Assembly: GCA_965178125.1 (NCBI GenBank)
Contig: OZ237738.1
Location: 1,364,001-1,428,000, forward strand
DNA length: 64,000 nt
Direction: 5' to 3'
Origin: Bilabrum cf. latius
Lineage: Eukaryota
The notes below the pieces were generated by a model. That model did no database searches. It was not told where the DNA came from and was given only the letters and a program-made list of their open reading frames with translations. The translations under genes and the position numbers were made by a program. Of the stretch, positions 4,299-51,565 are shown piece after piece. Position 1 is the first letter of the stretch; every line of letters begins with the position of its first letter.

Positions 4299-4449
4299 CT
4301 GGTGCTAGGCGGCAACGGACGTGGTAAATTAACCAACCTATGAAGCGTGTGATCTGGCTAAAATCTGATTTTAAAATATGATACTCGGAGTTGTAATGAC
4401 GCCAAGAATCCGGCTTGAAATAAATACGTTGCAAACGTTGAAACGCACC

Positions 4450-5934
4450 ATGAGAGCAGCCCAAGTGTGTCGGCATACGTTCCGGTTGGTAAATTTGACC
4501 GGGTGCAGGTCGTTGCGCACTTCATCAAGGGCATACATGTCAACAAACCCTTTTGATCGTGCCGAGATGGGCACTCCCGATCCGATTCTGGGGCTATCTG
4601 AGGCCTTCCAAAAGGTACGTGTTGCAATCTCGTTGAACTTGGTTATTAATTGCATGGAATGTTTATAGTGCCCGCCTCTTGCAGCCATGCGGACCGGTCA
4701 TGTCGGGCTGGCAGGCAAGCAGACACGTATCACTGCTCGCAAGGGCCGTTTGCACTTCGCCATCTCCATCGTATTGCAGGACTCGGACCCTCGTAAAGTC
4801 AGTGTGGGTGTTGGTGCGTATCGAGACGATGATGGCAAGCCCTACGTGCTACCGAGCGTCCGCGAGGCTCAGAGGAGGATGGTCGAGAAGGGTCTCAACG
4901 AGGAGTACGCCGGGATCCTGGGGATCCCCACCTTTGTAAGCAAGGCAACGGAGTTCCTGTATGGGCACGACTGCTCTGCCATCAAAGAAAACCGCCTGGC
5001 GGCGTCCCAGGCCCTCTCAGGAACAGGCGCGCTGCGCGTGATGTTTACGTTCCTGCACGACCACCTTGGCGAGCGCGCCGACGGCCAGCCGCACAAGGTC
5101 TACATGCCCAACCCCACCTGGGCAAACCACCTCCCCATCGCTAGGTGCAGCGGACTGGAGCCGGCACAGTACAGCTACTACCACCCGGAGACGGTGGGCC
5201 TGGACTTTGACGGCATGCGCAAGGACCTGGAGGGAGCAGAGGACGGCTCCCTCGTCCTCTTCCACGCCTGCGCGCACAACCCGACGGGGATCGATCCCAC
5301 GCGGGAGCAGTGGTCGGAGATCTCCGACCTGTGCAAGAAGAAGGATTTCTTCGTCCTGTTCGACTCGGCCTACCAGGGCTTCGCCTCGGGCGACGCCGAC
5401 AAGGATGCGTGGGCCGTGCGCGAGTTCGTGAGCCGGGGACACCACATGATGGTGGCGCAGTCCTTCGCCAAGAACTTCGGCCTGTACGGCGAAAGGGTCG
5501 GGACTCTGTCGGCGGTGTGCAAGGACGAGGAGGAGAAGGCTAGGGTGACCGAGGCGCTCAAGCGGACCATCCGTCCCATGTACAGCAACCCGCCCATCTA
5601 CGGGGCCAGGATCGTGGACGAGGTGCTGGGGGACGCCGCGCTGGAGGCACAGTGGAGGGAGGAGTGCAAGGGGATGGCGGATCGGATCGCGAGCATGCGG
5701 CAGGCGCTGAGGTCCAAGCTGGAGGGCCTAGGCACTACGCGGGACTGGTCGCACATCACCTCCTAGATCGGCATGTTCTGCTACAGCGGGCTGGCCCCCG
5801 AGCAGGTGGACCGCCTCCGCGAGGAGTTTCACATCTACATGACCCGCAACGGGCGGATCAGCATGGCCGGTGTGACGAGCAAGAACGTGGACTACATGGC
5901 CGAGAGCATCCACGCCGTCACCGGGGGGCATTGA
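4450..5934 (+). CDS. GOT2: Aspartate aminotransferase, mitochondrial type; exons 4450-4614 and 4780-5934
   Basis: Arg-rich presequence, [36 protein letters not shown] lysine motif [16 protein letters not shown] 5764-5766 lies in HITS*IGMF, followed by the GRISMAG motif and TGA 5932-5934. Intron 4615-4779 (GTACGT...TGCAG). Confidence 0.95.
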
Positions 5935-6413
5935 CTGCCTTTCCTGTTGAAAGACGATCTTAGCTACGTGTTTCGCTTTTGTGCTCAATCCCTCAGGTGT
6001 CGGTATCTGTGAGAGTGGTGGAAGTACTGATGCATGGACACAAGGCGTGGTTGCCAGAGCTTCGAAGCGTAAAGCGAGTTGTTTCTATCACAAGACACGG
6101 CACTGCATGCAGCAGCACACGGCAGAGAAGCAGACATACCACCTTCTTTCATGAAGCGGGCCCTGGCCGACAGCAGCCGCCCAGCACACAGCCGAGCGAG
6201 CCATCATAACCCTGAACCTCAGCTCTCAAGAAGAGATGATGCCGTCACCCTCCCGCGCGCCACAAGCGCTCTAGTCCTGCGTGTGTCCCCGCCAGCTGAT
6301 GCGGTCGCGTCAAGCGGGCCAAAGCACCGCCGTCCACGACCGCCGTCCTCCCCTTGCGAGCGAGCACTAGGCAAGTGCTCTAGTGCTCACTCCACCACGC
6401 GCTGAGGGCGCGC

Positions 6414-7688
6414 TCACTCGTCGTCGGAGCCGGACTCGTCCTCGTCGTCGTCCGAGTCGGAGTCGGCGGCCGCGGCCTGGCGCTGCAGGATGGTGCGGTA
6501 GGCGTCCTTGAGGCGGTTGATCTCCTCCCGGCGCTCGACGGCGGTCCTCTTGGGGGGGTTCTTCTTGGAGGGGTCGTGGGCCACGGCGCCCTTGCGCTGG
6601 GCGCGCTGCTCCTTGCGCTCGGCGGGGGTGCCGGCGGGCATGGCGTGGATGGGCTTGGGGTCGGCCTTGATCTTGTCGAAGAGGCCGCGGAAGTGGCCCT
6701 CGATGCCGTCGGGTCCGATGCCCGCCTCGACGTACTTGGCGAAGTGCTTGGCGTACGTCTCGTCGCCCTTCTGCTCCTTCACGTACTCCATGGCAGCCTT
6801 GACCTGCGCGCCCACGATGCGGGCCACGTGCTCCTCGGCGTTGTACTCGCCGGTCTCAACGTCGTACCCGGGGAAGCGCTTCTCCGAGTGGGGGATGTCC
6901 AGGCCGCCGTCCACGGCGCCCTTGAGGGCACCGAACAGCTTGCAGCCGCGGGTCGCCACCCTGACGCCGATGTCCAGGTAGCAGCGGAAGGGTCGGCTGT
7001 CGTCGTCCAGCTCGGGCACGTAGCAGAGCCTCTTCTTGGTGAAGCGCTCCTCCAGCTTGGGGTACTCCTCGATCTTGGCGGCGATGCGGCGGGGCAGGAT
7101 CGGGTCCTCATCGGTCTCGATCTCGCCGGTGATCTCCTCCACGGGGGCGTACTTCTCATGCAGGCCCATGCCGGCCAGGTGGGGGCTGCACTGGAGCAGG
7201 CGGCGGGCGCACAGCAGGCCGGTGGCGTACGCGGCGGCGTACGACTTGAGGCCGCAGGCGGGCACGCCGTACTTCTTGGGGAACTCGGCGGACGAGGCGT
7301 GGCAGATCACGACATCGTTGGAGATGGTCGAGTACACAACCTGGCAAGTGCAGTACCGGTTCGAGAAGCGCACCACGAGGCGGTACTTGTGCATCCCGTA
7401 CTTGCTCTTGTCGTTCACGACGAGGCGGCGGCGCTGCGCGTAGTCGGTCTTGCCGTCACGGCGGCGGCGATACTTGACCTGGTACCTCTTGAAGTAGGCC
7501 TTGTTCTTGATCACCTTGAAGAATGGCTGCAATGGTTCAAGTAGGGTGGGAGCAGCAATGGCAACAGCTTGAAGACCAAAATGACCCTGTCCTGTCCATA
7601 ACAACAACCATTGAACGAAAGTGGCTGAGCTATACTAAGTAAAAAAAAGAAGTAGCATCGATGTAAGGCCACGAAAGATGCTCACCAT
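6414..7688 (-). CDS. RPL5: 60S ribosomal protein L5 (uL18); exon 1 is the ATG only (7686-7688), exon 2 is 6414-7526
   Basis: KVIKNKAYFKRYQVKYRRRRDGKTDY, AAAYATGLLCARR, GALKGAVDGGLDIPHSEKRFPG. Intron 7527-7685 (GTGAG...TGCAG). TGA stop; no internal TAG. Confidence 0.95.
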
Positions 7689-7836
7689 GCTGTAAACCCC
7701 CTTAACTCTTTAGTGTTGTTCTCGTGGCCAGCAGGATCGGATCGCGAATGGCGATTCGGTTACAACCGCACTAACAGTGGTTCCACTGCCGCACAGATTG
7801 CTGGAGTAGCCACTATCGGAGCAACATGCACCAATT

Positions 7837-9589: not shown

Positions 9590-9620
9590 GTGCACAAACG
9601 GAATCAGACGGGAGCCTCGG

Positions 9621-9841: not shown

Positions 9842-12800
9842 TCAAGCCAGCTGCACGAGCCACCCCGCTGCAGCCGCGACATCGAGCGAAATCCCACCCA
9901 CAGACTCGGAATGGGAAACCCTTTCGACATGTGCAGGTCGACTTACCCGTGACAATTCAGCCGCCGAGGGTAGCTGAGCCGACAGGGTCGAGGCACGCAA
10001 TCGCTTCGGACCTGCACCAGCAGTGCTCGCGCGCAGGCTCACGCTCTGCGAACGACAGCTCCTGGGCTCCTCGGTTGACCTCCTGGCTGATCCCGACGCG
10101 GACGAGCCGCAGGTACCGCTGCCATTGGCCGCAGCTACGTTGGCATGCGGCTCCTGCCGCCAAGAGTGGCACGCCCCTGAGCCCAGCCCCGAAACCCTCC
10201 TGCTCCTCGCAGGCTGGATCCACCCTTGCCCCGGCCCCTGCCCCGGCCCCTGCCCCTGCCCCTGCCCCGGCCCTGGCCCCGCCCCCCCGGGACTCGCACC
10301 CGCGCTCGCCAGCTCCTCCGCAGAAAACTCCGCCACTGAAACAGCCCCGTCAGCAGGCCCACTCCCCCAGCTGCCCGGCACCTCCGCCGTGGACTCCGAC
10401 CGCACGCTGCCCGCCTAGGGCGAGGCAGCACCACTGCCACTGCCACAGCCCACCCTCCTGCGGTTCGCGTCCCGCTCGTCCAACACGTGGGGTCGACCCT
10501 CTCGGATCAAGCTGCGGACCGCGTCGGGACTAAGCGCGGCTGCTGGTGGCGACAGTCCGCTAGTACGCTCGCGCCAGGGGGATGCAGGCCGGCTCACGGG
10601 TGGTGACCCGCTCTTGGGCTGCAGCCGTGCGAGGGCGCCGTGCACGAGGACTGAATCAGACGCGTCGCCGTTCAGCTGAGACGAATACAGCGACTAATGC
10701 TGCTGTTGCTGCGACTTCTGGCGGCTGCCGCTGCCAGATGGCTGCGGGTTGCTAGAAGAGGACGATGAAGACGAGGAGGCTGATGACGACGAGGACGAAG
10801 AGGACGGTACCCCTCCGCCTAACGATGATGACCCGCCGCCCGCCGCACCCCCCGCTCCCGGGTCGCGGTCGTCATCGCCATTCCTGGTGTTGCCAAGGCC
10901 AGCAGCATCGCCGGCATTCGCGCCCGAGGAGGACGACTGCCTCTTGCTGCCCCTCCCCTTCCCCTTCCCCTCGCCCTCGCTCTCGTCCTCCTTGGGCCGG
11001 TCCTTCCCATCAAGCACCAGCTCGTCGTCGTTTAAATCCAATCCCATGACAGACACCCGCTCCCTGTGGTCTGGAGTGGCTAGGGAGGAGCTAGAGTCCC
11101 CGTCACCAGCCCCAGTAGCCGCGCCTGCACCCGCACCCCGCTGGCCAGCACCCGCACCTCCATTGCTGCGCGAACCGCTGCCGGCGGCAACCGACCTGCC
11201 CGGCAACGAAGACGGCCCCTCACCAGACGCCACACTGCCGCTACCGCTTCCGGAGCTGGCACTCGGGCCCCTGACTACTTCAGCGGAGGGCGACCCCGCG
11301 GGCTCGCGACCATCTGGTGACCCGCCATCGTGACCCGCGGACGCGAGCGGGCTCAGCGCCCGCATCGCCTCCTCGTTGCTCTTGGCGGCTCCCCCGCTCA
11401 GATGGGTGCTCACGACGTGACGAGTGCCGGCCAGGTCCGCGGCACGACCCGCCTCAGCATGCGCCATCTCACTCTGCATTGGCGGCTGCTGCTGCTGCCG
11501 CTGGCCAGCCAGTGTCCCGGCAAAAGTTGATGCCGATGCAGCCGTTACTGGTGCGCTGGCCAGAGCGTCGATGGTGCCCTGCACCCCCTGCGCTCCGTGT
11601 GCGCTCCAGTGCAGCGCCCCCCCCCCCCGCTGCTGCTGCTGCTGGCGCTGCTGCTGCTGCTGCTGGTCCTGGAGCAGCTCCTGGAAGGAGGCGGAGGACG
11701 CTTCCTTGTGCAGGAAGCTGAAGGCTGCGTCTGCCTCCGACCTGACGCTGAGGCCGTTCATCTTCATCTTCATCTCGGGGTCGGATGCGCTGCTGCCGCC
11801 GCTCGCCTGCCCCTGCCCCGGCCCCGGCCCATGGCCCGCACTTTCCGACCTGGCCTTCTTTACCGGGCTGGCACCGCCCCCGCTGCTGCTCCCCCTCTTT
11901 CGCTTGTTCCCTGGAGCCAGTGGTCCGTTGCTGCTGTCGCTGTTCGCCCCGCTCGCGTCCGTGCTGTTCCCCTTGGGCGTGTCCTCGCCCAATCTCGAGG
12001 CTACGGTGCCGGCCCCAGCGCCCCCGAGGCTAGAGCTGCTGCTGATGGCCAGGCTGCTGCCGATAGAAGCCCGGTTGCCCCCGCCCGCGCCCCCCTTGAC
12101 GTCCATCGCCTCGGCCTTCTCCGCGCTCTCCGCCAGCGACAGCAAGCTAGCGGGTCTGACCAGCCCCCGGGAGGAGCTGGAGGGGGACGAGGCGGGCGGG
12201 GCGCTGACTCCCGGGGGCATCCTTAGCTGCGCGGCGTAGGCGGACGAGACGTTGCCTGTCCTGGTGCTCCCCCCTCCTCCTTTCCCTCCTCCTGCCCTCC
12301 CCCCTCCGCTGGTGGGAGAAGGGATCGAAGCAGCAGGAGACACCCCCGGAGGCATCGACACCTGCTGATGCTGCCCTCCACCCGCCAGCCCGCTGCCCAG
12401 CCCTAGCGCTGTGCTGATCGCGCTTGCCCCGCCTTTGCCTCCCGGCCCGTTTCTGTTCCCGTCCCCGCCTGTGAGGCCGCCCTTGCTGCCCCCGCCACCG
12501 CGATCATCATCATTCCCAGCGCTTAGACTGCTCAGCAGGTTGTCAAGCCGCGTCGACTGGCTGAACTGAAGGCCAGAAAAGCTGCTGTTGGAGGCGTTGC
12601 GTGGGATGGAGGACGACGAGGAGGACGAGGACACGGGAGCTGCAGACGACGATGCCCCAACACCCAGGCCGCCACCCATCGTTCCACGGACGCCCGCAGA
12701 CCCGGTCCCGGAATTAGCAGACGACCCGGAGCCACTCACCGGGGCCAGTCCAAACCCGGGAACACCCACCGTGAAGCTACCCCCACGTCCCACCGCGGCG

Positions 12801-14485
12801 CCGGTTCCGCTGCCTCCGAGGGACAGGCTCAGGCTCGGCGACAAGCCAGCCGAGCCTAGAATGGGCGACCCGGCGCCCCCGCCCGAATTGTTCCCTGAGG
12901 GAGACACGTCCTGATGCAGGGCGGCGGCCATGCCCAGCGTGGCCAGCCCGATCCCCGTGCCCATCCCCACGCTCACCCCGCCAAGGAAGCCCCCGCCGCC
13001 GCCACCCAGACCACCCAGAGACGAGTCCGAGGAGCCATCGGGCCGCCGCTGCCTGCCCGGCGGCGGCGGCGGCGGAGGCCCACCGAACCCGGCGCTGTGG
13101 TCAGCAAGGAAGCTCTGCTGGTAGGCGGAAGCCAGCGAATCTAAGGGAACGTTCTCTCTGGGGGAACCATCGGGGGCGTAGGGGTCCTCTGTCCCCGCAA
13201 AGGCCAGGTCGATCGCGCTCCCGCCCCGTGCCCCCCCGCGCCCGCGCCCAGACGCGCCCCCGCCCCGGCCTCCCTTGGCCCCGCCGTTCCGCTTCTTGGC
13301 CGCGCTGCTTGAGGTCCTCCGCTTGGAGCGCGACCCTCCGTCTATGCTCTGCTGCACTCGCTGCAGAAACGCGACCGCCAGTTCCTTGCGCCGCTCCTTG
13401 GCCTTGAGCGCAGCATCGCTGCCACGGTTGGCAAACGCCTGCTGCTACTTCTTCTAGAAATCAGACTGCGACAGAGAGTTGCGCAAGGCCCCAAAGGCAC
13501 GGGTATGGAGGCAAAACACTGGCGGGAGGCCAGCCTTCGATGCACAGCAGTACCAAACACTGGACAAGCGTGCAGATAGCGGGGAAAATCGTCCTCATCA
13601 TTGGGAAATCAGGTGCTGCTATGCCGCGTACCAATCAAAACACCACGGGACGCAGCGTGCTGCGACCGAAATGGCAGCAACACTCGGACACCAGCTGCAA
13701 CTGCAAGAGCAACTCTCGAAAGAGTGCACATATTGCATCGCAAACAGGGAGTGGTGCAGCCGCAAAGGCGCCCCATGCATGAGAATATGCTATGATCCGC
13801 CCAACGGCACCGCAGCGCGTCGCCGCTAGTGTCCGAGGTCACCGATCGGTATGTTTCTGAAAGACGAACGCTCCAGCTCTGTTTCGTCGCTTGACAGAGC
13901 AACATGTCCCACTGCTGGCCATAGAAGCGGTTTATTTGCACTGTTCCACCGTCATTCGCCACACCGCAATAGAAATTATGCAATACCAAACAGATCTACT
14001 TGGATGGCCCACGTGAAATCGCGCAAGCACGTCCGACTTGCGCCGGTAGATCGTTCGAACTGCCATGACGCGCCTACACCACGCCGATGGAGGAGTCTCA
14101 CCTTACGAATAGACAGAGTTCTGTTATATTTTTTAGTGACGCGCATTGGATCCACATAGAGCGCGGCCGCAAGGTACTCTCGGAGCGAGAGGCCGCCTGG
14201 CAGCATAAACAGGCCAGACTGCCAGTCTTCAACTACCTGCGAAGCGTAGGCAGTTTCCTCTGGACTCCACTTCCCCTTCCTTCGTTCACTGCCAGTGAGT
14301 ACTGCATATGCATCTGGGTACATCTGGGGTCCGCCTGCCTCCTTCATCTCCGCCAAAGCTGGGGTGTTGTGCTGCGTGTATTGCTGGCTAGCATCACCAT
14401 CGCCCGACGTCACGCCGCCCCTACCAGCATCATCTAATCCACCTGATGGTTCATACCTGTCAGGACGAACTCTGCGAGTATTCAT
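9842..14485 (-). CDS. Putative transcription regulator: N-terminal Myb-like domain plus a long Gly/Ser/Gln low-complexity region; exon structure in 13466-14101 uncertain
   Basis: RKGKWSPEETAY...LREYLAAALYVDPMRVTKKY in the first exon; donor GTGAG at 14101 and likely acceptor CGCAG near 13466. ORFs 10694-13357, 10415-10645 and 9842-10405 share one frame, with TAG at 13454, 13445, 10694 and 10415; TGA stop at 9842. Confidence 0.6.
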
Positions 14486-14657
14486 TCGGATGGTCGCTTC
14501 GGCAGCCGATGCTGCAGATGGACTTTGCCTCGGTTGCAGTTGCACCTGGGGACGGGCGGCCCTGGTCGAAAATCATATTTGCCATCTAAATACACGTTAC
14601 CATTTTCAAAGTATCCGGAATCCGGATGCCTGACGCACTTGGAGGGATCGGTACGAA

Positions 14658-18446: not shown

Positions 18447-21400
18447 TCACAGCTGGCTAGCTCCTGCGCTGCCTCCGTCTCCCGCCGCCGAGCCAGACTC
18501 TGAACCCGGCGCTGGAACGTCGATCGTTGGCGGCTAGAAGCCACCTGTACCACGCGTGTCCTGAGTGTGGGCCTGGGAGTTCGGTTGGGCCTGGGCCTGC
18601 AACCCACCGGCAAGCGTTGCCGCACTCGCGTGCAATGCACCTGACGGGTCAGCCCTACTTCCCTCTGGTCCGACTTGCCCTTGCACCGAGCGAGGCACGC
18701 TGCTATTGCTATTGCTGTTGCTGTTGCTGACGGCCACATGCCCGCCACCTCCAGGCACCACGAATTGGGCCTAGTGCTGTGGCAGCTGCACTTGCTGCTG
18801 CGCCTGGAGTGGATGCTGCAGCGGGGAGGGCGCATACCCGTAAAGCCCCTGCGAGCCAGCTTGTTGCATGGGGAGTGTGGCTCCCGGCCCGAAGACCGGC
18901 GACCCCGGGTTGGGATGGTGGGGCTGGTACCGGTACTGCTGCGCAGCACCATGCAATGCACCGGGTCCCGCGGTTGGGTGCTATCCAAACAGCTGCATCG
19001 CAACGGCAGCTGGGGGTGGCTGCCCCTGGAGGACAGGCGTTCCGATGGATCCACCCGGCACTGGCGGAATTAAGCCTGCTGCGCTTCCGCCGCTTCCGCT
19101 GGCGGGGCTCCCAGCGGGACTCGGCATGGAAGGGGCCCCTGTAGAAAAAGGAGCAGCGGGCATGACTGGTGTGCCCTGTGCGGGGGACACAGCGTGCCCC
19201 TGCCAGCCGAGCACGTGCTGCTGTGGGGTGCCAAACGGAGGCTGCTGGTACACCGGCTGCTGTTGTTGCGGCTGATAAGGGGCGTGTTGCATTGCGACGG
19301 GGACTCCTCCAGTCGATGTTCCCTGCGTCAAGCAAGCTCGGATCCCAGCCACTGCTCCCACCACAAGCAGGGTGGCAAGCACGCCCGCCCCTGCAGCAGC
19401 CCCCACCTCCAGCCTCCACTGCAGCAGCTCCACCTGCTCCTGCGCGGCCTTGGCTTGCCGCTCTGCCTGCCTCACCCTCTGTTTCAGGTCGCCTACATCA
19501 TCTTTGAACCCATAGGCCATCAACATAATCTAGCTTAGACCGCTCTTCAGCTCGTAGGCTACGCTATCTGACAGGTCCAACACAGTCGAGGCACTCCTGC
19601 TGCCCGAGTCACCCCCGCTTTCGCCCTCGCTACGACTGCTGGAACCGTCCCCTCCGTGCCTTTGATCGCGACTTCTTGCGTAGGCGGGCGACGCAGAACC
19701 GCCACGATGAAATCGATCGCGCGCCGCGTGTCCACTGCCAGCACTGCAACCAAGCTGGTCGCACACAGCCTATGTGCCGCTGCCGTCGCCGCGAGTGCCA
19801 CCGCTCAGCAGCACGACCCCGGAGTCAGATGCAGCCGCAGTCTGGTCCAGCAGCTGCGCTGCGGTGGCAGCAGACAGCTTTCCGATCGCCCCCACCAGCC
19901 GCCTCGGCCACTCTTCTACCTGGGCCTGCCAATCAGACGTGTCAATCATGCTGGGCACCTTGCCAGAGCTGCTCAATATTTGGTCATGACCCACTGTGCC
20001 GTTCCGATAGCGATGGCGATGCCTGGCAGCTCTGGGCGAGCAGCCGGTCCTACCAGCATCCAGAGCTTCGCCCGAAGCAAGCACCTCTGTCGCATTCGAT
20101 GCGTCGAAACGATCGCACCGATCCCGCCCGTGCAGCTCCCACGGCCTGTCCGTTGCACGGGCGCCTGTGCCCCCCTCTCGAACCCCTGTGCCCCCCTCTC
20201 GAACTCCTGTGCCCCCCTCTCGAACCCCCCCTGCCACGGTAGGATGCCCGAGCATGCGAGTGCCAGCGGCTGCGGCGGCCTCCGCTTGAGATCTCGCTAG
20301 CCAGTCGACGCACAGGCCACCGGAGCACTGCAAGGCACTTGCCTGGGCCTCCAGGGACACCAGCAAGGCTTCCACAAAGGCGATAGAGCTCGCAAGCGAG
20401 GTGCCGTCAAGCTCACTCCCAGCCATCGTTCCGTTCGCGGACCCCCACGGCGCGTTTGAAGCATCGCCATTCCTGCCCGCACCACGAGTTTGTTCCCTGT
20501 CCAGTTCCCTGGCCTTGCGCGCCTCCTCGAGCGCGTCCACCCTTCCAATCAGCGAGAGCTGGGACTCGAGCACGCCGGACAGTTGCAGCCGCATCGACTT
20601 GGCCAGCGTCTCCAAGTTCCGAATCTTGGCGCGACTAGACTTGAGCTCTCGCACTGCAGTGTCCTGCAGCCGCTAGACGTACCTGTACAGCGTCACGTGG
20701 TCCTTTTGCAGGGCAGTGATGCGGGAGAGCAGGGGGCGCCACGGGCTGTCCCCCTTCTTGACCTGGTATGCCTTTGAGTCTGCCCTCATGTTGTACAAGG
20801 GAATTCGCCGTAGCTTATCCAGCGGTACTGGGTTGGGTGCGCTCACCTGTCCAGGGGAGGCTGTTCGGTTGGCAGGGCCTCTGGTGCGGTTCGATGGCTT
20901 GCTTGTCACCGTACCACCAGCGGGGGATGGACTACCACCACCAGCAGTGGCGTGGTGCAACAGTGCAGCTTGCTTGGCTGGGAATCGACGGGCAGTGGTG
21001 TTAGTGCCGGTGCTGTTACTGGTCTACCCACTGACATCCACGCCCGCGCCAACTGCCGCAGAGCCGTCAGGGCCGGCAGAGCTCGTGTTGGTCGATGCAG
21101 GGCCCTTAGGCTGATCTGAGGGCACCACACCCTGCTCAGCTTGCGTTTCTTGCACATGTGCGCTACCACTCAAATGCGTGGGGGTTGCATTGAGTCCCTC
21201 CATGGTGTCATTCGATGCCAGTGTCTGGTTGGAGCTCTCGGATTCAGGGCTCCCAGGCGAGGCACCTTGTCCTAGGCCGCTGTTCGGATCTGGCTCTCTT
21301 GCTGTTGAAGAGCTGTAGTTCTTGCTCTAGTTCAAGTCAACAAGACCTGCCTCATCTGCGCTACCTGGTATTCGACTCAGCACGGGCTCCATTGATCGAG

Positions 21401-24400
21401 GCTTAGCCTTGGAAGAAGGTACTGCTGCGTCCTCAGCCAAGTCTGCCTCGACCGCCAGATGCCCTGCAGCCGCTTCCTCCTTGCCATCCTCGGGCAAAGC
21501 GGTGGCTTGTGGCGTTGCAACGCGTGAAGGGGGATGGCTTGCTGCGAATGAGGGACTCCCTGCCGCCGCATTGTCTGCGATTAGCTTTCCACCCGACTAG
21601 TGCTCGCCAGCATCTTGCTGCTGGCTTTCGGTCTGCTGACTAGCATGGTCGTCGGGGACCGGCTCAGGCACGGCTTCAACTATGCCAGCCATATCATTCA
21701 AGACACTGGCAGCAAGACCCTCATTTTCCGTCTTGATTGTCCCAACGGAGCCTTCTACTGCCGCAACAGTGCGAGAGGGTAGCGTGCTATCGTCTGTCTA
21801 AGCCGCTTTTGTCACGCTATTTAGGGCTTGCCCGCTGGAATCAGGCGAACGAAGTGCAGCTCCAGCAACTCCAGCCGCATCTACTGGCGCGCCCTCTCCT
21901 TCTCGCTCCGATCCTCCATCGCCCGGCATAAGGGACTTGGACGGCCCCTACTCGGAGCGCTCGTGCATTTGCTCAGCTACTTGGGTCGTGCCGCCGGTAG
22001 ACGCGTCACTCGGCTGGACGCCACCTTCAAGTGCGGGCCCCTCCGCATTGCCAGCTGGTGCACTAGCAAGGGAGTCAGCACCTGCTTGAGGCTGCACCGA
22101 CTGTTGGGCCTCACTGTGAGCTTGGGTAGCACCCGAACTAGCATCCGCATCAACGGAATGCGATTCGCTTGCATCTGCGATTGGGCTAAGGCTAGCTGTG
22201 TCCGAGGCAGTAGTGCTTGCCGCCGATGCGCTGTTTACTGCTTGCTCACCAGCGACAAGTCCAGTCAGATCCACCAACCGGCTGCTGCTGCTGCCATCGT
22301 TCTCACCCAGAGAACTATCTCTTGCAGCACCCTCTACCGCGGGCTCACTCTCTGGCTGGTGCCCCCCCGCCCCCCCATGTCCCTATATTTGCGCCTCCGC
22401 GCCAGCAGCTTCTTCTTCGCCAATCGCAACCGCAATGCTGACACCCACCGCCTCGGTGGCCTCGTCCTCGTCCTCGTCCTCCACCTCGTCCTGCTCGTAT
22501 ATGTTGGCCAGGTCTTCCTGCACTGCTTTGAGCATCTCCGCTTCGATGTCTGCCTCCTGCTCGAACTTTTGGGTGTGCGTGCGCCCGTACACGCTGAGCG
22601 TGGTCATGGTGCACATGTCCTCCAAGCCGTGATACGACTCCCACTCCAGCTTGAGGAACCGGGCCTCAGCTGAGTGCGCCGTGCGGAAGACCTGCTCCTC
22701 CCTCGTGTCCTTGGCCTCGAAGTAGCCGATCTGCACCCAGTCGCTGCCCCCCTTGTCCATCCCCGTGTACACTCGGAACCTGCGCACGCCAGACGCGTGC
22801 CGCTCGCTGTTGGAGATGGCGACCAGATCCACGTGGATGTCGCTGCCTAGACGCACAAGCACCCATTTTTCCTGCTAGGTACAGTCCGCCATTGCGTACT
22901 TATCTTGCTGTCGGTCCAGCAGGTTAGCTGCGTTGTGAAAGGAGGGCGAGCTGGCGGTCAGCTCGGCACCCACAGACGACGCCGCGAAGTTGATCATGCC
23001 CGTCTCAGACGCAGAGTCGTCCTCAGGTCCCATTGGCTCGGCAAAGGGCAGGGGCGTTGGGGCTGCTTCCGAATCTTCATGCTGCTCTGCTGGTGCTGCA
23101 GCTTCTTTTGTGGCATCGGAGACAGCTGCAGGATGATGCTTCTCCTGACCACCGAGAGACACTTGCTATGGTTCAGCTGAAATTCCTGCGTCAGCGCCGC
23201 CCGAAGATTCCTCGACCGGCTCTTCGCGGTCGTTCGCCTCGCCATCCTGCACCAGCCCGCCCTCTCCCAATACGCCCATGCCTTCCTCCCCCGCGTCTGC
23301 TGCCTGGCTATCGTCTGCAACGATGTCCCTTGCGCCAGCAGCAGTAACTTCCTCGCCTGTATCCGCTGGCTACTTCCCAGTCAAATTCTCATCGCTGGCA
23401 TCGTTCGACTTCTGCATCGCTTTCGAGTCCCCAGAATGCTCGGCTTCAAGGTCGGGGGCAGCAGCAGTAGCATCAGCACCGACACCAGCACCGACACCAG
23501 CACCAGTACCAGTACGGCTGGGGGCGACGGCAGCTGCGTTGCCCTAATTCCCGCTGCTCTGTCTCGGCTCTGCAAAACTGTGATCGGAATCCTCCGACTC
23601 AAGCTATGGCTGCGCCTCTGATGCATCACTGGCTTGCTAGTTCGAACCGGCCGTACTGGTACTGGTACTGGTACTGGTACTGGTACTGGTACTGGTACTG
23701 GTACTGGTACTGGTACTGGTACTGGTACTGGTAGTGGCAGTAGTTTCGGTGGCGCTGCCATTGGCAACAATTGAACCCTTGCGTATACTGGCCTAGTCGC
23801 CGCGCTCTTTTCCCAAGCCTGGATTTGGCCTAGCACTCTCAGCCGTGGGCTGCACGCCACCGGCCCCTCCGCCCTCCACCTTCCGCCCGTGGCGCCCACC
23901 CTCCTCATCCTCCTCCTCCGCATTTAGGCCATCGGAATCGGCGGTACTCTTCTGCGACTGCCCCACCTTGGGCGGAGAGTGCTAGGCTGAATTAGAGTCC
24001 GTCTGACCTTGCGACACCATAATGTCATTTCCAGCGACAGTCGCGCTATCCGAACTAGCCATCGACCAGGACACTGGTTGCCCAGTTACACGTGTGGGGG
24101 CTGCGCCTTGTGGTTCGCGCGGTTCGGATGATGTTCCATCAGTCTATTGCATACAAAGCATGGGATCTAGCGGCGGATTTTCTTGACTTGCGTCGCTCGT
24201 AGATTCCTATCGTTGCTCTGCCGCCACGTTGACGGCGCTTGGTGAGGCGGTGGTGACGATGCTGCCTGAGCGCGCTGGGTACTGCATTGAGCTCTATTCC
24301 ATAGCACTCGCATGCGCGAACTGCTAACCCATGTCATGATTCGTTGCAGCGGTTGCCTCAGACAAGATTGCCTCTTGAGATGACAGCTGATTGAATGCAC

Positions 24401-24658
24401 CTTCACCCTTGGGATTTTGCTTGCTCTCGCTCTATCCTAGGTTTCTCTCGACAATACCAGCTTCTTCAGCATCGGCATGATTCGTTATTACAATGCCTGC
24501 ACTTCAAGAGCGGTACATCAATAATAATTCAAGGGATGCGGCTGCAGCCTGGAGGCATCCGATAACACCAAAGTCCGTTCGGGCTCACCAACAACAAGCG
24601 CTGTCATAATTCCTATTCGGCACCATTCTCTGCATATTCCGGTTGATTGATTTTTCAT
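18447..24658 (-). CDS. Mid-SUN domain protein (SUCO/SLP1-like), ~2,040 aa; exons 24589-24658 and 18447-24496
   Basis: SUN domain INFAASSVGAELTASSP...ARFLKLEWESYHGLEDMCTMTTLSVYG (~22570-23000), then coiled coil (LLSRITALQKDHVTLYRYV) and TM (GVLATLLVVGAVAGI). Hydrophobic N-terminus after splicing. Nine track ORFs share one frame, separated by TAG; TGA stop at 18447. Confidence 0.8.
20165..20233. repeat. 21-bp coding tandem repeat, three copies (GVREGGT) inside the SUN gene
   Basis: CCTGTGCCCCCCTCTCGAAC(C/T) occurs three times in tandem. Confidence 0.85.
23654..23733. repeat. (GGTACT)n hexamer repeat, ~13 copies, encoding (Ser-Thr)n in the SUN gene frame
   Basis: Perfect hexamer repeat; the minus strand reads AGT ACC in the gene frame. 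Confidence 0.9.
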
Positions 24659-24971: not shown

Positions 24972-26360
24972 ATGGACAACACGGGTTTGCTAAGTGACGC
25001 TAGTAGAGACGCCAGGGATGGAGAGAAGCCGTACGAGCAGCTAGAGCGGGTGCGGCGGGCCGAAGACTGGCAAGCTTTCCTCGTTTCAGCTGGTGCAGTT
25101 GCCGCGATGCTCGTATTTGCGATCATTGTCGCATCGATACCTAGCTTGCGAGATTCCCATCTTGAAAAGGAGGTGGGCAAGGAGTGGAACATGCTGATAT
25201 CTTTCTGCGGCTGGTTCGCGTTCGCGGCCTGGTCCATTTCATTTTATCCTCAGACTGTGTAGAATTTCGTGCGTGGCAGCGTGGTTGGGATGAACTTCGA
25301 CTACTAGCTGTACAATTTGTTCGGATTCGGGGCATACTCGTTCTACAACTGCGCCTTTTTCTTCAACAGTGCGATCCAGCACATGTACGAGGGGCACCAC
25401 AGCGGGGCGCACAGCGACGTCGCCTCGAACGACGTCTTTTTTGCCCTGCACGCCGAGGTGCTGACCGTAATCACCATGTTTCAGATTTATTTCTACGAGA
25501 AGGGCGACCAGCGGTTCACCATGTTCGCCATCGCGCTCGTCATCCTGCTCACCGCGGGTCTCGTCATTTACGCCGGCATCGTTGGCGGGAACGTGGCGTC
25601 TGACTGGCTTGAGCTCCTCACTGTCGTGGGTTGGTGCAAAGTGGGCATCTCCCTCCTAAAGTACATGCCACAGGCCTACATGAACTGCGTGCGGGGCACC
25701 ACAGACGGCTTCAACGTGTACAACGTTCTGCTGGACTTCACGGGCGGCTCCTTCAACGTGGCGCAGCAGGTGATCCCGTGCATCCTGACGGGGTCCTGGG
25801 ATGGAATCGCGGGGAACAGCGCGAAGTTTGGGCTGGGTATGGCTTCCATGGTCTTTGACACGATCTTTGCGGTGCAGCACTACATCCTGTTCACCCGCCG
25901 CAACGAGCTGTACATATTCGCGAGATCTGCCTCTGGCCTCATGAAGCCTCAAGACAAGGAGGCTGTGCTAGGACTCATGGCAAGGGACCGCATGGATGAT
26001 CTCAGGAACTCTGGGTTGCTGGCCCCCTACGTGCAGCCTGGAGCAGGGGGTGCGCTGGAGGGGTACGGGTCCAGTGGTGGGGGTGGCCGTGGCGGCGCCG
26101 ATGAGGGGGGGGAGGAGGGGGGCATGTCTCCTCTAGGGGACGAGACGGGGCTTCTTCTTGGGAGGAATAGTCTAGGGGGAGAGTCCAAGCTGGATGACAG
26201 GCTCAGTGCCAATGCGGGGGCCAGGTCATTGGGTGGTGGTCGCGCTTCGGCTGGTCGGCCAGGCGTGGACACGAACAGCCTCGGAGTTGGAGGGACGGTG
26301 GAGGGGCTGGGCAGCTCGCTGGACAGCCTGGAGAGTGGGAGTGGACGCCCCTTCCACTGA
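24972..26360 (+). CDS. CTNS: Cystinosin-like PQ-loop lysosomal transporter
   Basis: AWSISFYPQ, SVVGMNFDY, NDVFFALHA, KYMPQAYMN, NVLLDFTGG, KFGLG, QHYILF. In-frame TAG at 25260 and 25305; TGA stop. An alternative in-frame start lies at 24936. Confidence 0.9.
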
Positions 26361-26634: not shown

Positions 26635-27485
26635 TTACAGGATCATGCACATGCCTCCCGTAGTGACTGGTGGCGTGTCATCCTTCATCTTGTCAGAGTA
26701 GGCCACAGTGGTGCCCGCCCCGAACACTGCCTTGCCTCCCTCCCCCTTGGTGGGGTCAATGGCCTCCTCCAGCACGCGCATGGTGAGCGCTTCGAAAGCC
26801 TCGGACACGTTGATGTCCTCCTTAGCGGAGCACTCGATGTACTGCGCCCCCCAGTCCCTCGCCTTCTTCTCGGCCTCGGCCTTGAGCACGCTCCGGTCCT
26901 CGTCCAGATCGCACTTGGCTCCCACAAGCAGGATGGGGAGCCTCTCGCCTGGCTGGGCCTTCTGAATCTTCTCATATACTTCGTCAAGTGCAGCAAATGA
27001 AGGGTCATCCTTGATGTCAAATACCAGCATGTAGCCATCGCCAGATGCCAACTTTTCGTCTCGCACCGACTCGTAAGCCTACTACCCAGCTGTATCGTCA
27101 ATTTCCAGGTGTCTCGGGGCACCCTTTAGCTCAATATCTTTGGTGTACATGTCTCCGATGGTCGGGTTGTACTGCAAACGATAGAGTCAGAACAGTTGGG
27201 GGACGAGAAGGGTCGAGGTGGGTTGCAATCGACGAAGTCAGCGAATTGCCGCGTCCAGACTTGGCTCACATCCGTGTCGAACATGTCACTTGTGTATCGA
27301 ACTACCATAGCCGTCTTTCCTACGCCACCTTTCCCCATCAAGACGAGTCTGCGAAACGTTTCGTGGCCAAGAAAGAGAATAGCTGTGGTCGGCGGCACAG
27401 CCTACGTGCTAACCCATACAGCCAATCAAAACCAAGTATTAACACACATAACCTCAACATTTAGTCCTTACTTGATTGCTGACAT
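26635..27485 (-). CDS. Ras/Rap-family small GTPase, ~209 aa; exons 27472-27485, 27270-27348, 26635-27171
   Basis: KLVLMGKGGVGKT (G1), YNPTIGD (G2), DTAG** (G3; TAG at 27082 and 27079), AKCDL (G4), ECSAK (G5), and CaaX CMIL directly before TAA. Confidence 0.92.
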
Positions 27486-27594: not shown

Positions 27595-29650
27595 ATGGCA
27601 GCAGTAGGAGGTGCAAGCTCTGGCTCTGGCGCTTCAACTGATCCATCGAGTACGTCGGGCAAGTCAGGAGCCGACGCAGCTTCGTCTCTGTCTGGGAAAG
27701 TATCTTTCTCGTACGAACCTGAGGACGGCGGCGACGGGTACTCTCTTCAGGACCTATTCAAAAAGCAAGGGTGCATTGGATACACATACGATGATGTAAT
27801 TTTGCTGCCTGGTAAGTTCTGTCCAGGATGGACCCTTCATGCCACTATCCAAGGCAGACAGGGCTGAAGATTCAGCCGCCGCTGTTCCTCTTTCTGTTGC
27901 ACTTCGCGTGCAGAAGTTACTGGCAGTGCTTGCAGGCATAATGTGGCCGCAAACCCATAAACGTACTGGTTCGTTCTTCCCACTGCTTTGCATCGCAGGA
28001 TTCATTGATTTTGGAACGGACGATGTTGACTTGTCCACTAACCTCACTAGAAACATCAAGTTGCAGACGCCGCTTATCTCGTCTCCTATGGATACGGTGA
28101 CTGAGAAGGAGATGGCTATCAACATGGCCCTTCAAGGCGGAATTGGAATCGTGCATTACAACAACACGATCGAGGAGTAGGCAGCCGAAGTGCGTAGCGT
28201 AAAGCGGTACGAGAACGGGTTCATCAGCAACCCGCTGTGCCTCGCGTGAGACATGCGCCTCATTGCGTGCACGGGCGACACATCCGCATGCACCAATCAC
28301 ATGTCTCGTATTGATTTTGACGACCTGCCGATCACCCATCGGGGCGTCCCTCCTCTCGCTGCAGCCCACACCACAGTGCTGCACTGCACTGAGCTGACCC
28401 GCATGCGCGGCCTCCCTCTCCCCCCCCAACCGCTCGATGCCTTCCCCTATCCCCGCTCTCTGATATTCTGCCCACGTCGCAGCCCAAGCCACACGGTGGC
28501 AGATGTGGAAGAGCTCAAGAAGAGGCACGGCTTCTCCGGCTTCCCCATCACGGAGGACGGCAAGATCGGCTCCAGGCTGCTGGGGATGGTCACCAGCCGA
28601 GACATCGACTTCAGGAGCGAGAAGGACACCCCCCTGTCCGAGGTCATGTCCACGGACCTGGTGGTGGGCGAGGAGGGCATCTCCCTGCGGGACGCGAACC
28701 TCATCCTGCGGGAGAGCAAGAAGGGCAAGCTGCCCATCGTCAACACCAACTACGAGCTCGTGGCCCTCACCTCACGCACGGACCTCAAGAAGAACAGGGA
28801 CTTCCCGCTGTCGTCCAAGGACGAGGGTGGCCAGCTGCTGGTGGGCGCCGCCATCGGCACGCGGCCCAAGGACAGGGAGAGATGTGCCGCCTTGGTCAAG
28901 GAGGGTGTGGACGTGATCGTGCTCGACTCGAGCCAGGGGGCCAGCATGTACCAGCTCGAGATGATCAAGCACATCAAGGCCACGCACCCGGGCCTGGACG
29001 TGATCGGCGGCAACGTGGTGACCAGGGCACAGGCGCTGCGCCTGATCCACGCCGGGGTGGACGGTCTGCGGGTGGGCATGGGCGTGGGGTCCATCTGCAC
29101 CACGCAGGAGGTGTGCGCGGTGGGGCGCGCGCAGGCGTCGTCCGTGTACCACGTCAGCAAGGCTGCCTGGGAGGCGGACAAGGTCCCTGTGATCGCTGAC
29201 GGCGGGATCGGCAACACGGGCCACATCACCAAGGCCCTTACCCTGGGTGCCTCGGTGGCCATGATGGGAAGCATGCTGGCGGGAACGGAGGAGGCCCCCG
29301 GGCAGTATTTCTTCCAGGATGGAGTGCGGCTCAAGAAGTACAGGGGCATGGGCTCCATCGAAGCGATGACCAAGGGGAGCGCCAAGAGGTACTTTGGCGA
29401 GCTGGCGTCGGTCAAGGTCGCGCAGGGAGTGTCGGGGGCGGTCGTGGACAAAGGCACCATGCGGAGGTACATCCCCTACCTTGTACAGGGCGTCAAGCAC
29501 GGTTTCCAGGACCTCGGGGCGCGGTCCATCGCGCACCTCAGGGAGATCAGGGAGGCGGGCAAGCTCAGGGGGGAGCTTCGGTCTGCTGCGGCCTAGAAGG
29601 AGGGCGGCGTGCACGGGCTGTACACGTACGAGAAGAGGCACTTCGGGTGA
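27595..29650 (+). CDS. IMPDH: Inosine-5'-monophosphate dehydrogenase; exons 27595-27811, 27999-28245, 28483-29650
   Basis: [20 protein letters not shown], a CBS pair, catalytic [30 protein letters not shown] at 28178 (NNTIEE*AAEV) and 29594 (SAAA*KEGGVH); TGA 29648-29650. Confidence 0.96.
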
Positions 29651-31101: not shown

Positions 31102-33469
31102 TCAGCTCTCCTTGCCGGCAGCACCGCCAGAGGCTGCGGTACCCGCCCCCGCTTCCTTCTCCTTGCCCTCCCCTTCCTCCTCCTTCCTAAGCTCCTCCAG
31201 CGCCGCGATGGCGGTCGCCCCGGACGGCAGCTCGCTCAGCGACCAGGCACGCGCCCAGGACCCGATGGGCTTGGCAGACGCTAGGGGGACCGCAGTGAGG
31301 TCCGAGGAAGAGGCCTTCCGGGTGGTGGCCAGGTGCCTCGCCATCAAAAAGGCAAGCTCCATGGACTGCGCGTAGTTCAGCCGCGGGTCGCAGTAGGTCG
31401 TGTACCGCCTGGGGAGGTCCGATTCCTTGAGGCCCTGAGGGCCGCCCGTGCACTCGGTCACGTTCTCCCCCGTGAGCTCAAAGTGCACGCCGCCCAGCCG
31501 AGTGCCCATCGCGTCGTGGATCTCGATGGTTTGCCGCAGCTCTGACACGATGTCGTCGAAGTTCCTCGTCTTGAGGCCGTGCGTGGCCGCCTTGGTGGTG
31601 TTGCCGTGCATGGGGTCGCACGTCCACACGGGCTGCAGCCCGCTGGCCTTGACGGCGCGGATGAGCGGTGGCAGCAAGGAGTGCACCTTTGAGGCCCCCA
31701 GCCGCGTGATGAGGACGATCTTGCCGGGCGTTGCCTTGGGATCCGCCCACAGTGCCTCGATGAGGGGCACCAGATCATCAGGCTTCATGGAGGGCCCCAC
31801 CTTGATGCCGATGGGGTTGGCCACGCCTCGGAAGTACTCGACGTGTGCGTGGTCCAGCTGCCGGGTCCTGTCCCCGATCCAGATGAAATGCGCGCCGAGG
31901 TTGTAGTACTTCTTGTCCTTGCCCTCTGCCTTTGAGGCCGAGGAGGAGACAGAGGCAGCAGGTGCCGCACCGCTGCCGGTACCGGTACCGGAGGAGGCAC
32001 CATCGATGGGAAGGCCCACATCCCCTGCCTCTGCCTCCTCTTTCTTGGCTTCCTCCTATGCGGCGGCGGCAGCTTCCGCGCCCCCTGCAGCAGCCCCTCC
32101 TGCGTCCACACCGCCCTTTGCACCTGGCACGGCCGGTCCCAGGGGATCCACGGTGTAGGACTTGCCCGAGGCAGCCGGGCTGACTCCCCTCGTGAGCGCC
32201 GACTCGTACTCGAGGTGGAGGCCCTCGTGGGAGGAAAACAGGTCGACCGTCTTGATCGTCTGCTGGTCGTCGCCCACGCCCGCCACCCGCATGAACGCGA
32301 GCGCGCTGAGCATGTGGTCCACCATGTCCTTGTACTGCGCCCGGAGGTCCTCGTCCTGCACGAAGCCCAGGTCCCAGTGCCCCGCGTCGTGGAGGTCCGC
32401 AAACTGCCCAGCGAGGAGGGCCCGCGCGTAGTTGAGGGTGGCCGCCGAATGGAAGTAACCTTGCACTAGCCTCTCGGGGTCGGGCACCCTGTTGTCAGGG
32501 TCATAGCCATTCACGTTGTCGCCACGGAAGGAGTGGACCGTCTCTGCGCGCGAGAAAAGTTTCACCGGGGCAGCGACTTGAAATGCAGCGAAATGGCGGC
32601 GGGTACCGAGGCAGGCATCGATAATGCGTTTAACAGCCTATCTCATATCAAGCATTGTGCTCTTCCGGGCAGCACCGCATTAATCGCTGACAAGTTGCGG
32701 CCGTATCTCACTGCCGTCGACAACTTCAGTTGGGCTGCTTCTCGGCTTGGAGAACTGTCCGGCCATTCTGGCAATGCGTAAGGTTGGGATACGGGCACCC
32801 CAAGTTAAAACCAGCGACATTTGCAGGAGAATCTTAATCTTCTTCTCGATTGGCTCCGAGGAGCAATCCTGAAACCTCTCCGCACAGTCTCCGCCCTGCA
32901 GCAGGAAACGCTTTCCCTCCGCGACTTCATGCAGCTACGCTCGCAACCTATCGATTTCGGTTGGAGAAACGAGGGGTGGCAACCGACGGACTGCGGCGAG
33001 ATAGCGAGCAGAGAAGAATCGATTGCACGAGTGGATTTTTTACAAACCATTGGACTACTTTAGCCAGAGGCAGCAACAGCAGGGGTCATGCAGCTTGTCA
33101 ATCACTACATAAAGCTCATTATAGCGATTGATCGGCCTGTGTTGTCACTGGCTTAGCCAATTGCTTCAGTAGGTATGACTCAGGCAAGGCCGAACAACTG
33201 GGCCACAAGCGATTCTCTCGGCCTTGGTGCAAATGCCTTCCGCGAACCAAGGAATCCCGTGATTATCGAAGCAGTTATTGCAAAATTCATTCGAAAAGGC
33301 TGGCCGCCTACATCTTCGCGAAATATGATATGCAGCAGCTGGAGATGCTTCGCAAAATCTCCTCACCTCGTTCCAACGACTCCCCCAGTGCCTTTTTATC
33401 CTCGTATGGTGGCTGCTACTTGACGGGCTTGCTTCTCCAGGAGTCTAATGTCCAGCCGGGAGCAGACAT
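31102..33469 (-). CDS. Class II DAHP synthase (phospho-2-dehydro-3-deoxyheptonate aldolase); exons 33367-33469, 32712-32990, 31102-32543
   Basis: DSWRSKPVK*QPPY, LPPLVS, FLLQGGDCAERF, RMAGQFSKPRS, SFRGDNVNG, SHEGLHL, AHFIWIGDRTRQ, CDPMHGNT, GGVHFELTGENVTEC, CDPRLN. TAG at 33416, 32935 and 32056; TGA stop. Confidence 0.95.
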
Positions 33470-48491: not shown

Positions 48492-48912
48492 TGCCGCGAG
48501 GGCGCCATTCTAGAACGTGCACGCTGGGCACGCCCACGACATCAAGAGAGCTTTCTTTCCGAATTGCTCAGGAGACTGCAGCAGGAGACCTCGGCACTCC
48601 GTTCACCAATACACTACGAAAGCCTTCTGTTGAAAGTGATATCAAATGATATAATACTAAGAGTGCAGCTATACTTCTACACTACTTGTACACCGCCCAA
48701 TTCACGACACACTACCTCGTTCTTGCTAAAATTTGATTTTATAAAGTAAGGTGCTATTCCAACACAAAGGTTATTCATTATCGGTGTCCACCTTGGGGGT
48801 GTGGCAGCAATAGCGGTTGCACATTAGATCTAGATAATACTTTGTGTGGTTTCTTTACCCCACAACTGATTCTAGCATTGCTGTCTTGCTCCCCAACACC
48901 GGCCAGTTGAGG

Positions 48913-51121: not shown

Positions 51122-51565
51122 GCGTGAGGGAGTCGGCGCGGGATCGAGGATGGGGCGGATCGGCGATCGGTCGTCGGATTGTAGTGGGCGTGAGCTGCCG
51201 GTAGATTAGCGGGTGATTGCAGCTGCCTGGACTGAACTTTGCACAGCCATGTGTTTTTTAATAGCATCGTTAGTTTCTCGCGCGTATGATTGTCTGCTCT
51301 TTCGCGGCCGGGAAACCTCGCAGCACAGTGTCCCTCCCGACAAAAAAGCTCATCATCAAGCTTCATCAACTTGCGACCACCAGTCTGTCATGCCCGTCCT
51401 CGTTGGCCGCCGGCGCATTCTACATGCCGCACCTGTCGAATCAGCGCAGCGAGAGGTGCTTCGAGTCAATATTAATTTAAGGTATCGTTTGGTCAGGTCG
51501 TAGTGCTGAGGGGCGCATCCATAAGGTGCCAAGCATCGGTGTCAACGGCTCGCCAACACATTGTG

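Follow-up and report, generated by a model that had tools for sequence, protein, structure and literature searches.

In a 64,000-nucleotide stretch of contig OZ237738.1 (positions 1,364,001 to 1,428,000 of the forward strand; assembly GCA_965178125.1, deposited as Bilabrum cf. latius), which we call the window, TAG is a sense codon. Alignments of conserved genes indicate that it is read as glutamine, and UGA (mostly) and UAA act as terminators, so that the pattern fits NCBI translation table 15. An earlier, sequence-only reading of the window had proposed UAG=Gln with UAA and UGA as stops, together with a stramenopile-like host in which the code would have arisen independently. The first proposal is borne out by frame lengths, by the ends of open reading frames (ORFs), and by alignments at conserved Gln positions, and judged from these sequences the code change is solid. 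As to the source, we think it probable, if well short of firm, that the window comes from a GC-rich, probably marine unicellular eukaryote using UAG for Gln, that the host is most likely a fast-evolving stramenopile, and that the change is independent of the fornicate and ciliate cases.

In-frame TAG codons and the residue at their positions

Read with the standard code, no frame in the window exceeds 916 codons. When TAG alone was freed, the longest frames reached 4777, 2018, 1403, 1281, 1250, and 1219 codons. Freeing TAA alone gave no gain in frame length, and freeing it on top of TAG changed only one of these top six frames (from 1403 to 1465 codons); freeing TGA gave little or no gain. Because TGA and TAA are both frequent in other frames (197 to 304 and 52 to 76 instances, respectively, per 21,333 codons across the six frames overall, with TAG at 127 to 172), long frames devoid of both are not a product of chance. 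Ten in-frame sets comprising 13,147 codons hold 140 CAA, 445 CAG, and 80 TAG codons. The frames were defined in such a way that TAA and TGA necessarily number zero in these sets; what counts as independent evidence is how little any frame grows when TAA is freed. If TAA also encoded Gln, at the observed CAA:CAG ratio, about 25 in-frame instances would be expected and the frames would break, yet they stay open. TAG, at 80 of 13,147 in-frame codons, occurs at about its frequency in noncoding frames and is therefore not avoided in coding frames. ORFs end in TGA in 12 of 14 cases and in TAA in the other 2, and TAG is not required to terminate any of these 14 genes. In-frame TAGs were confirmed in IMPDH, GOT2, DAHP synthase, and the neighbors of RPL5.

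To avoid bias, the alignments were made with TAG translated as X. All five TAGs that fall in conserved blocks (one in GOT2, two in IMPDH, one in a Ras-like GTPase, and one in DAHP synthase) align to Gln, and Leu, Glu, and Tyr are absent at these sites. GOT2, a mitochondrial-type aspartate aminotransferase on the plus strand, carries its TAG at 5764..5766 in exon 2 (4780-5931), at an invariant Gln (hitsXigmfc, against hitdQigmfc in PDB chains). Among the 120 best homologues, this column holds Q in 119; the single gap belongs to P0124, a 98% identical, standard-code gene call that terminates exactly at the TAG. The TAG in IMPDH exon 1 (28178..28180, plus strand) aligns to the Q of human tpefQanevrkvk, in a column with 109 Q, 1 H, and 10 gaps among the 120 best homologues (109 Q in the 110 that have a residue there). 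In IMPDH exon 2 (28490-29647), the TAG at 29594..29596 (plus strand) gives saaXkeggvhg against human msaQieggvhg, and the column reads Q in 115 of the 120 best homologues, I in 4, and H in 1.

On the minus strand, a Ras-family GTPase (26638-27186; Pfam Ras, E = 2.4e-36) contains a tandem TAG-TAG at 27079..27084, with iddtagXXayesvrd aligned to ildtagQEdyaairdn of RalA; the first X is the switch II Gln of DTAGQ. The catalytic Gln of switch II (DTAG-TAG-TAG) is itself written by the reassigned codon. The fifth site, 32935..32937 (minus strand) in an exon of a class II DAHP synthase (32683-33039; Pfam DAHP_synth_2), lies in idrlraXlhevaegkrfllqggdcae, which aligns to ivrlqeQlaqvakgeafllqggdcae of Mycobacterium tuberculosis AroG.

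A metagenomic contig of 2,808 nt (L001) carries relatives of two genes of the window, GOT2 (89% identical) and RPL5 (82%), which converge as they do in the window. At the position of the GOT2 TAG it reads CAA, and its GOT2 likewise stops at TGA. The TAG sites of GOT2 and of IMPDH exon 2 are ordinary Gln codons in the closest relatives of these genes (89% and 94% identical, respectively). TAG makes up 2 of 33 Gln codons in three conserved genes, against 78 of 632 in seven other frames. The scarcity of TAG in conserved genes and the ordinary Gln codons of relatives fit an origin of TAG codons from CAG and CAA after reassignment.

The TAGs are also retained in contigs assembled from sequencing runs. 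The two TAGs at 13445-13456 are unchanged in spliced contigs of runs X5, X6, and X7, with 0 other letters, and record 7 of X5 covers the GOT2 TAG at 5764-5766, again with 0 other letters. This RNA evidence consists of assembled contigs rather than raw reads, and contig cover is little or none in places (e.g., 13471-13921 and 7608-8058).

Several observations weigh against this account of the codon. Three TAGs stand at columns that vary and in which another residue is more frequent than Gln, two in a cystinosin-like PQ-loop gene (25260..25307, plus strand) and one at the second position of the Ras tandem, which aligns to the E of RalA; by themselves, these three sites give no support for Gln. 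At the cystinosin sites, PDB homologues have L/M and V. Among 150 representatives, the first column contains L in 69, T in 15, I in 13, E in 12, M in 8, S in 7, V in 5, Y in 4, Q in 3, and others in 8, with 6 gaps; the second contains L in 46, Q and V in 28 each, A in 10, I and C in 9 each, T in 7, E in 5, and others in 6, with 2 gaps. In addition, the two genes on L001 (GOT2 and RPL5) contain no TAG, so that the contig does not inform us about the code of the sister lineage. The kinds of runs X5 to X7 are guessed: splicing shows that they include RNA-derived contigs, possibly with DNA mixed in.

Since Leu heads the counts in both cystinosin columns, Glu stands opposite the second Ras TAG, and a rhizarian is described with UAG=Leu (PMC11687900), it can be asked whether TAG is read through, encodes a residue other than Gln (Leu, Glu, or Tyr), or serves as both stop and sense codon. 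We consider this very unlikely. The conserved sites are near-invariant for Gln (119/120, 115/120, and 109/110) and the catalytic residue of DTAGQ is among them; when column frequencies are multiplied over four sites, as a rough estimate, Gln comes out about a thousandfold ahead of Leu; and the close relative has CAA at the GOT2 site. A role as a stop is opposed by the in-frame frequency of TAG and by the 14 genes, none of which requires it. We give almost no credence to the idea that the in-frame TAGs are artefacts of pseudogenes, assembly errors, or RNA editing: no evidence for it was found in the window or the run contigs, the 80 TAGs lie in ten frames that are otherwise open for up to 4777 codons, and contigs from independent runs repeat the TAGs, also across a splice junction.

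Placement of the host lineage

The GC content is 61.7% over the window (0.525 to 0.694 in 2-kb bins), in agreement with the high GC noted earlier, and the Gly/Ala/Ser-rich inserts described at the same time are plain in the translations. The earlier range of 85 to 380 nt for introns accommodates the 159-nt intron of RPL5 and the 165-nt intron of GOT2; a third, of 636 nt (13466-14101), is longer. No tRNA gene and no rRNA or other Rfam match was found in the window.

Among named relatives, stramenopiles dominate. From the best 120 matches of each search, we counted the rows whose organism name could be read. For RPL5, all six are ochrophyte stramenopiles (Mayamaea, Fistulifera, Epithemia, Synedropsis, Grammatophora, and Triparma; 41 to 51% identity). 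For GOT2, stramenopiles account for 26 of 34 names (58 to 63% identity), comprising brown algae, Tribonema, Chrysoparadoxa, Hondaea, and oomycetes; the other eight are Rhodomonas, five fungi, and two over-long plant and insect proteins (46 to 47% identity). For IMPDH, all nine named eukaryotes are stramenopiles, with Cafeteria first (71% identity) and Phaeomonas, Phaeothamnion, Mucochytrium, Florenciella, and oomycetes among the others; four bacterial rows (Melainabacteria, Vampirovibrionales, and one cyanobacterium) also appear. The taxonomy of named rows was checked; the matched brown-algal and oomycete genera we take to be stramenopiles in part from UniRef tags.

Maximum-likelihood trees speak less clearly, and much of what they show weighs against a stramenopile host, as does the general point that similarity ranking is not phylogeny and can be misled by long branches. 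The GOT2 tree, built from the window and 59 of the best 120 matches (36 named or labelled and 23 unnamed), groups the window with P0125 (89% identical), P0123 (86%), and P0126 (73%), with a support of 100 and a stem that measures 0.5. These four rows form a clade outside a 41-row cluster (support, 88) in which every one of the 20 named stramenopiles is found; the clade stands weakly beside three unnamed proteins (support, 53), and in the best tree it shares one side of a branch with the five fungal rows (support, 76; not significant). Holding the window clade with the 20 stramenopile rows, against the five fungi and Rhodomonas, costs 3.61 log-likelihood units, and the test does not reject this grouping (p-AU = 0.322). 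For IMPDH (the window and 63 of the best 120 matches), the window and P0243, which is 94% identical, fall in a 34-row side of the tree (support, 98) that consists solely of unnamed environmental proteins; the opposite side holds every one of the 8 named stramenopiles and the 4 bacterial rows. Further relatives, P0244 to P0250, are 76 to 78% identical. The RPL5 tree (the window and 60 of the best 120 matches) joins the window and P0004 on a stem of 1.16 changes per site, a long-branch warning that makes this tree uninformative. The lineage is fast-evolving and has no named close relative among the sequences compared. The earlier claim of a stramenopile-like host thus stands as far as the named best matches go, which are stramenopile, and no tree of GOT2, IMPDH, or RPL5 places the lineage inside stramenopiles; the matter is partly settled, in that the stramenopiles appear, from these sequence comparisons, to be the best-supported placement, yet short of demonstrated. 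The more specific likeness to bicosoecids is not shown by these comparisons: Cafeteria is only the first named IMPDH match and sits on the other side of the IMPDH tree.

Regarding habitat, the region 4300-9600 is matched in part by 24 listed runs of 15 studies, and four of these runs were examined. In RPL5 contigs of run X21, a marine plankton metatranscriptome, 9 of 274 letters and 4 of 529 letters differ, and hence a near-identical organism is transcribed in marine plankton. A scan of genome contigs with IMPDH found 47 loci, all of them bacterial eukaryote-type IMPDH at 55 to 68% identity and none from the lineage of the window, and a scan of viral contigs with IMPDH found no relative.

The strongest competitor accepts the code change and denies the stramenopile: the host would be an orphan or deep lineage (near Holomycota or the aphelids, for example, or in another supergroup) whose fast-evolving genes happen to score best against stramenopiles. 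We regard this as possible but doubtful. It draws on the position of the GOT2 window clade, outside the stramenopile cluster and on the side of the five fungal rows against stramenopiles and Rhodomonas, on IMPDH neighbors that are all unnamed, on the long RPL5 stem, and on the aphelid Amoeboaphelidium, an algal parasite for which two sources give UAR=Gln (PMC5304391 and PMC11687900). An aphelid-like host is opposed by the code itself, as TAA is not a sense codon in the window. More generally, no fungal or other nonstramenopile eukaryote is named among the best 120 matches of RPL5 or IMPDH; fungal IMPDH chains in the PDB score 437 to 458 bits, against 551 to 581 bits for named stramenopiles; the stramenopile grouping of GOT2 is not rejected; and the nearest clusters of the motif domain described below are from diatoms and oomycetes.

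We also looked for placement in a lineage already known to use UAG alone for Gln (Iotanema-like fornicates, Protocruzia, or phyllopharyngean ciliates), in which case there would be no new origin; nothing points there, and we hold it to be extremely unlikely. The code pattern would be identical, with UAG=Gln and UAA and UGA as stops (PMC11687900). However, the 360 best matches listed for the three markers (RPL5, GOT2, and IMPDH) include no named ciliate or metamonad, the GC content is high, and the genes are long and closely packed over 64 kb. The window encodes a mitochondrial carrier (Pfam Mito_carr) as well as the mitochondrial-type GOT2, and the carrier and the presequence-like N terminus of GOT2 argue against an amitochondriate fornicate. 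The one ciliate-like GOT2 locus met, on another metagenomic contig (L012), is only 46% identical to that of the window, and Iotanema is described as ending its genes mainly with UAA (PMC5304391), whereas 12 of 14 ORFs here end in TGA. Of the placements considered, we retain a fast-evolving stramenopile as the most likely host.

The motif-bearing gene and other genes of the window

The sequence-only reading had based its placement in part on a motif, GKW.PEE ... DPMRVTKK, located within 14101-14300. A regular expression matches this pattern at 14129-14275 on the minus strand, inside that span, and the corresponding minus-strand frame (13976..14572) translates to RRKGKWSPEETAYASQVVEDWQSGLFMLPGGLSLREYLAAALYVDPMRVTKKYN. 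The motif occupies residues 71 to 119 of exon 1 (14102..14485, minus strand; 128 codons, with the ATG at 14485, from frame and translation). Contigs of X5, X6, and X7 cover this exon from 14102 up to 14462-14528 and join it to 13465, skipping 636 nt. The joint between 13465 and 14102 occurs in three of the four runs examined, which belong to two studies (X5 and X6 to one and X7 to another), and its shorter side spans 177 to 255 letters. The skipped segment (13466..14101) has CT..AC ends on the plus strand, i.e., GT..AG on the minus strand, with the splice sites AAG|GTGAGA ... TCGCAG|TCT. As the run contigs join 13465 to 14102, the gene is expressed and spliced, and the stretch 14101-14300 corresponds to the 3′ part of its first exon. 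Exon 2 onward (9845..13465, minus strand) is an in-frame continuation, a long low-complexity frame that belongs to an ORF of 1250 codons with four TAGs and ends at the TGA at 9842-9844. Two of these TAGs (13454-13456 and 13445-13447) sit no more than 7 codons past the splice junction, and record 25 of X7 spans 13041-13465 with 0 other letters.

The label "Myb-like" given to the motif domain is an impression only, because no Pfam family matches the domain at E values up to 10, a curated Myb/SANT profile included; its single-sequence AlphaFold model, with three helices and a mean pLDDT of 59.6, is weak (too weak to exclude a Myb/SANT fold); and a Foldseek search of the PDB with this model returned nothing at E values up to 0.001 (three rows at E values of 6 to 10). 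As to the association with diatoms and oomycetes, the commonest phyla in the nearest Atlas clusters are Bacillariophyta (0.94) and Oomycota (0.91), which is a lead and not an alignment. The domain is a conserved one that lacks a curated family and is probably common to hypothetical proteins of diatoms and oomycetes. Of an IQ/WW/B-box architecture described at 51476-55684, the IQ motif is found by Pfam (E = 9e-5), and WW and B-box are not found at E values up to 10, which leaves these two labels as impressions from motifs.

The longest frame (33614..47944, minus strand; 4777 codons, 19 of them TAG) encodes a giant ubiquitin-specific protease (Pfam UCH, E = 1.3e-31) and ends in TGA; this deubiquitinase frame is uninterrupted over 14.3 kb, with no intron apparent. 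A SUN-domain protein (18450..24503, minus strand; Pfam Sad1_UNC, E = 7.5e-15) has 2018 codons with 25 TAGs and also ends in TGA; a PDB search with its SUN-domain stretch gave 0 matches. A GH16-type glycoside hydrolase gene (48838-49749, plus strand) contains one in-frame TAG and weakly matches the SKN1/KRE6 family of beta-glucan synthesis (E = 4e-7, below the curated cutoff).

RPL5 (6417..7700, minus strand) consists of a tiny exon 1, an intron at 7527-7685, and exon 2 at 6417-7526; it stops at TGA, and its coding sequence contains no TAG. The first exon ends with ATG (7686 to about 7700 or beyond) and is followed by the 159-nt GT..AG intron; run contigs break off at 7527 with loose letters that match 7687-7700, on the far side of this splice. 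The protein is unusually divergent for a ribosomal protein, as the stem that it shares with P0004 illustrates, and it carries an insert of about 20 to 25 residues (EITGEIETDEDPILPRRIAAKIEEYPKLEERF...) that is common to P0004, its 82% identical relative. The plus-strand GOT2 gene, with its own intron of 165 nt at 4615-4779, converges on RPL5, and the two abut or overlap at their 3′ ends, a gene pair that is kept in L001; one X5 contig of 2,781 letters (window positions 4785-7527) contains the 3′ part of GOT2 and the whole of RPL5 exon 2.

Two observations concern sequences from elsewhere. The GOT2 on the L012 contig (1,292 nt; 39.8% GC) has seven in-frame TAAs, one of them at the conserved Gln of AYQGF; judged from its sequence, the presumable source of L012 is a ciliate that reads TAA as Gln, a lineage unrelated to that of the window. 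Eukaryote-type IMPDH at 55 to 68% identity is present in Vampirovibrionales/Melainabacteria, some cyanobacterial metagenome-assembled genomes (MAGs), Planctomycetota, and Spirochaetota; those from Melainabacteria nest next to named stramenopiles in the tree of this protein.

Origin and meaning of the code change

Nuclear codes that split UAG from UAA are rare; descriptions concern one fornicate and a few lineages of ciliates, as well as a rhizarian with Leu and a green alga with Ser. PMC11687900 lists UAG alone as Gln in Iotanema, Protocruzia, and two phyllopharyngean lineages, UAG as Leu in a rhizarian and as Ser in Scotinosphaera, and UAR as Gln in ulvophytes, Hexamita, Streblomastix, and Amoeboaphelidium. 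The earlier statement that nuclear UAG=Gln is unreported in stramenopiles agrees with our search of full-text literature, which found no such report; subscription journals, bioRxiv supplements, and unpublished genome notes are outside the coverage of that search, and the organism may have been described before.

The closest parallel is Iotanema spirale (Fornicata; Panek et al. 2017, PMC5304391), in which UAG alone has passed to Gln and UAA remains a stop, as in the window. It belongs to an unrelated supergroup, and its main stop is UAA, whereas the window is GC-rich, favors TGA, and has mitochondrial-type genes. The phyllopharyngean ciliates and Protocruzia tuzeti (McGowan et al. 2024, PMC11687900) share the table 15-type code, which has arisen more than once; the window differs in its lack of ciliate affinity in the match lists, in its GC content of 61.7%, and in showing no sign of gene-sized chromosomes in 64 kb. 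The UAR=Gln codes (NCBI table 6: many ciliates, hexamitid diplomonads, ulvophycean green algae, Streblomastix, and Amoeboaphelidium) also read UAG as Gln. In contrast to these, TAA is not sense in the window: freeing it adds at most 62 codons to the top frames, and it ends 2 of 14 ORFs. The rhizarian exLh (UAG=Leu; PMC5304391), a SAR-group protist, likewise has UAG decoupled from UAA, but the residue in the window is Gln. Finally, code 15 phages (PMC9523058) and giant-virus MAGs (PMC13524828) combine TAG=Gln with TAA and TGA as stops; the window, unlike these viral genomes, is nuclear DNA of a cellular organism, with spliced genes and one for a ribosomal protein.

The finding is thus a further instance, probably of independent origin, of a known code variant. 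In its fuller form, an as yet unreported and independent UAG-only reassignment to Gln, with UGA the predominant stop, in a clade of marine stramenopiles that branches deeply, is largely uncultured, and is represented in public data by unnamed environmental sequences only, it is a proposal whose chances we hold to be about even. Cytoplasmic translation in such an organism would read UAG as Gln and terminate at UGA and UAA. By analogy with other UAG=Gln eukaryotes, for which PMC5304391 gives, as the proposed mechanism, a tRNA-Gln(CUA) together with eRF1 changes (e.g., T32G in Iotanema), this would involve a tRNA-Gln with the anticodon CUA, charged by GlnRS, and an eRF1 whose recognition of G at the third position of stop codons is weakened, such that it no longer recognizes UAG. 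TAG codons would then arise by substitution from CAG and CAA.

If the stramenopile reading is true, it would provide a data point for UAG=Gln from a new major group, with an unusual preference for UGA as the stop, and would indicate that this change can occur outside AT-rich genomes; a further gain would be a culture-independent handle on the tRNA and eRF1 changes that such a code requires. Gene callers that apply the standard code truncate the proteins of the lineage, as seen in P0124, and the lineage is therefore underannotated in public catalogues. Isolated giant viruses so far all come from standard-code hosts, according to PMC13524828, and the lineage would, if this reading holds, be a candidate host for giant viruses that read TAG as Gln.

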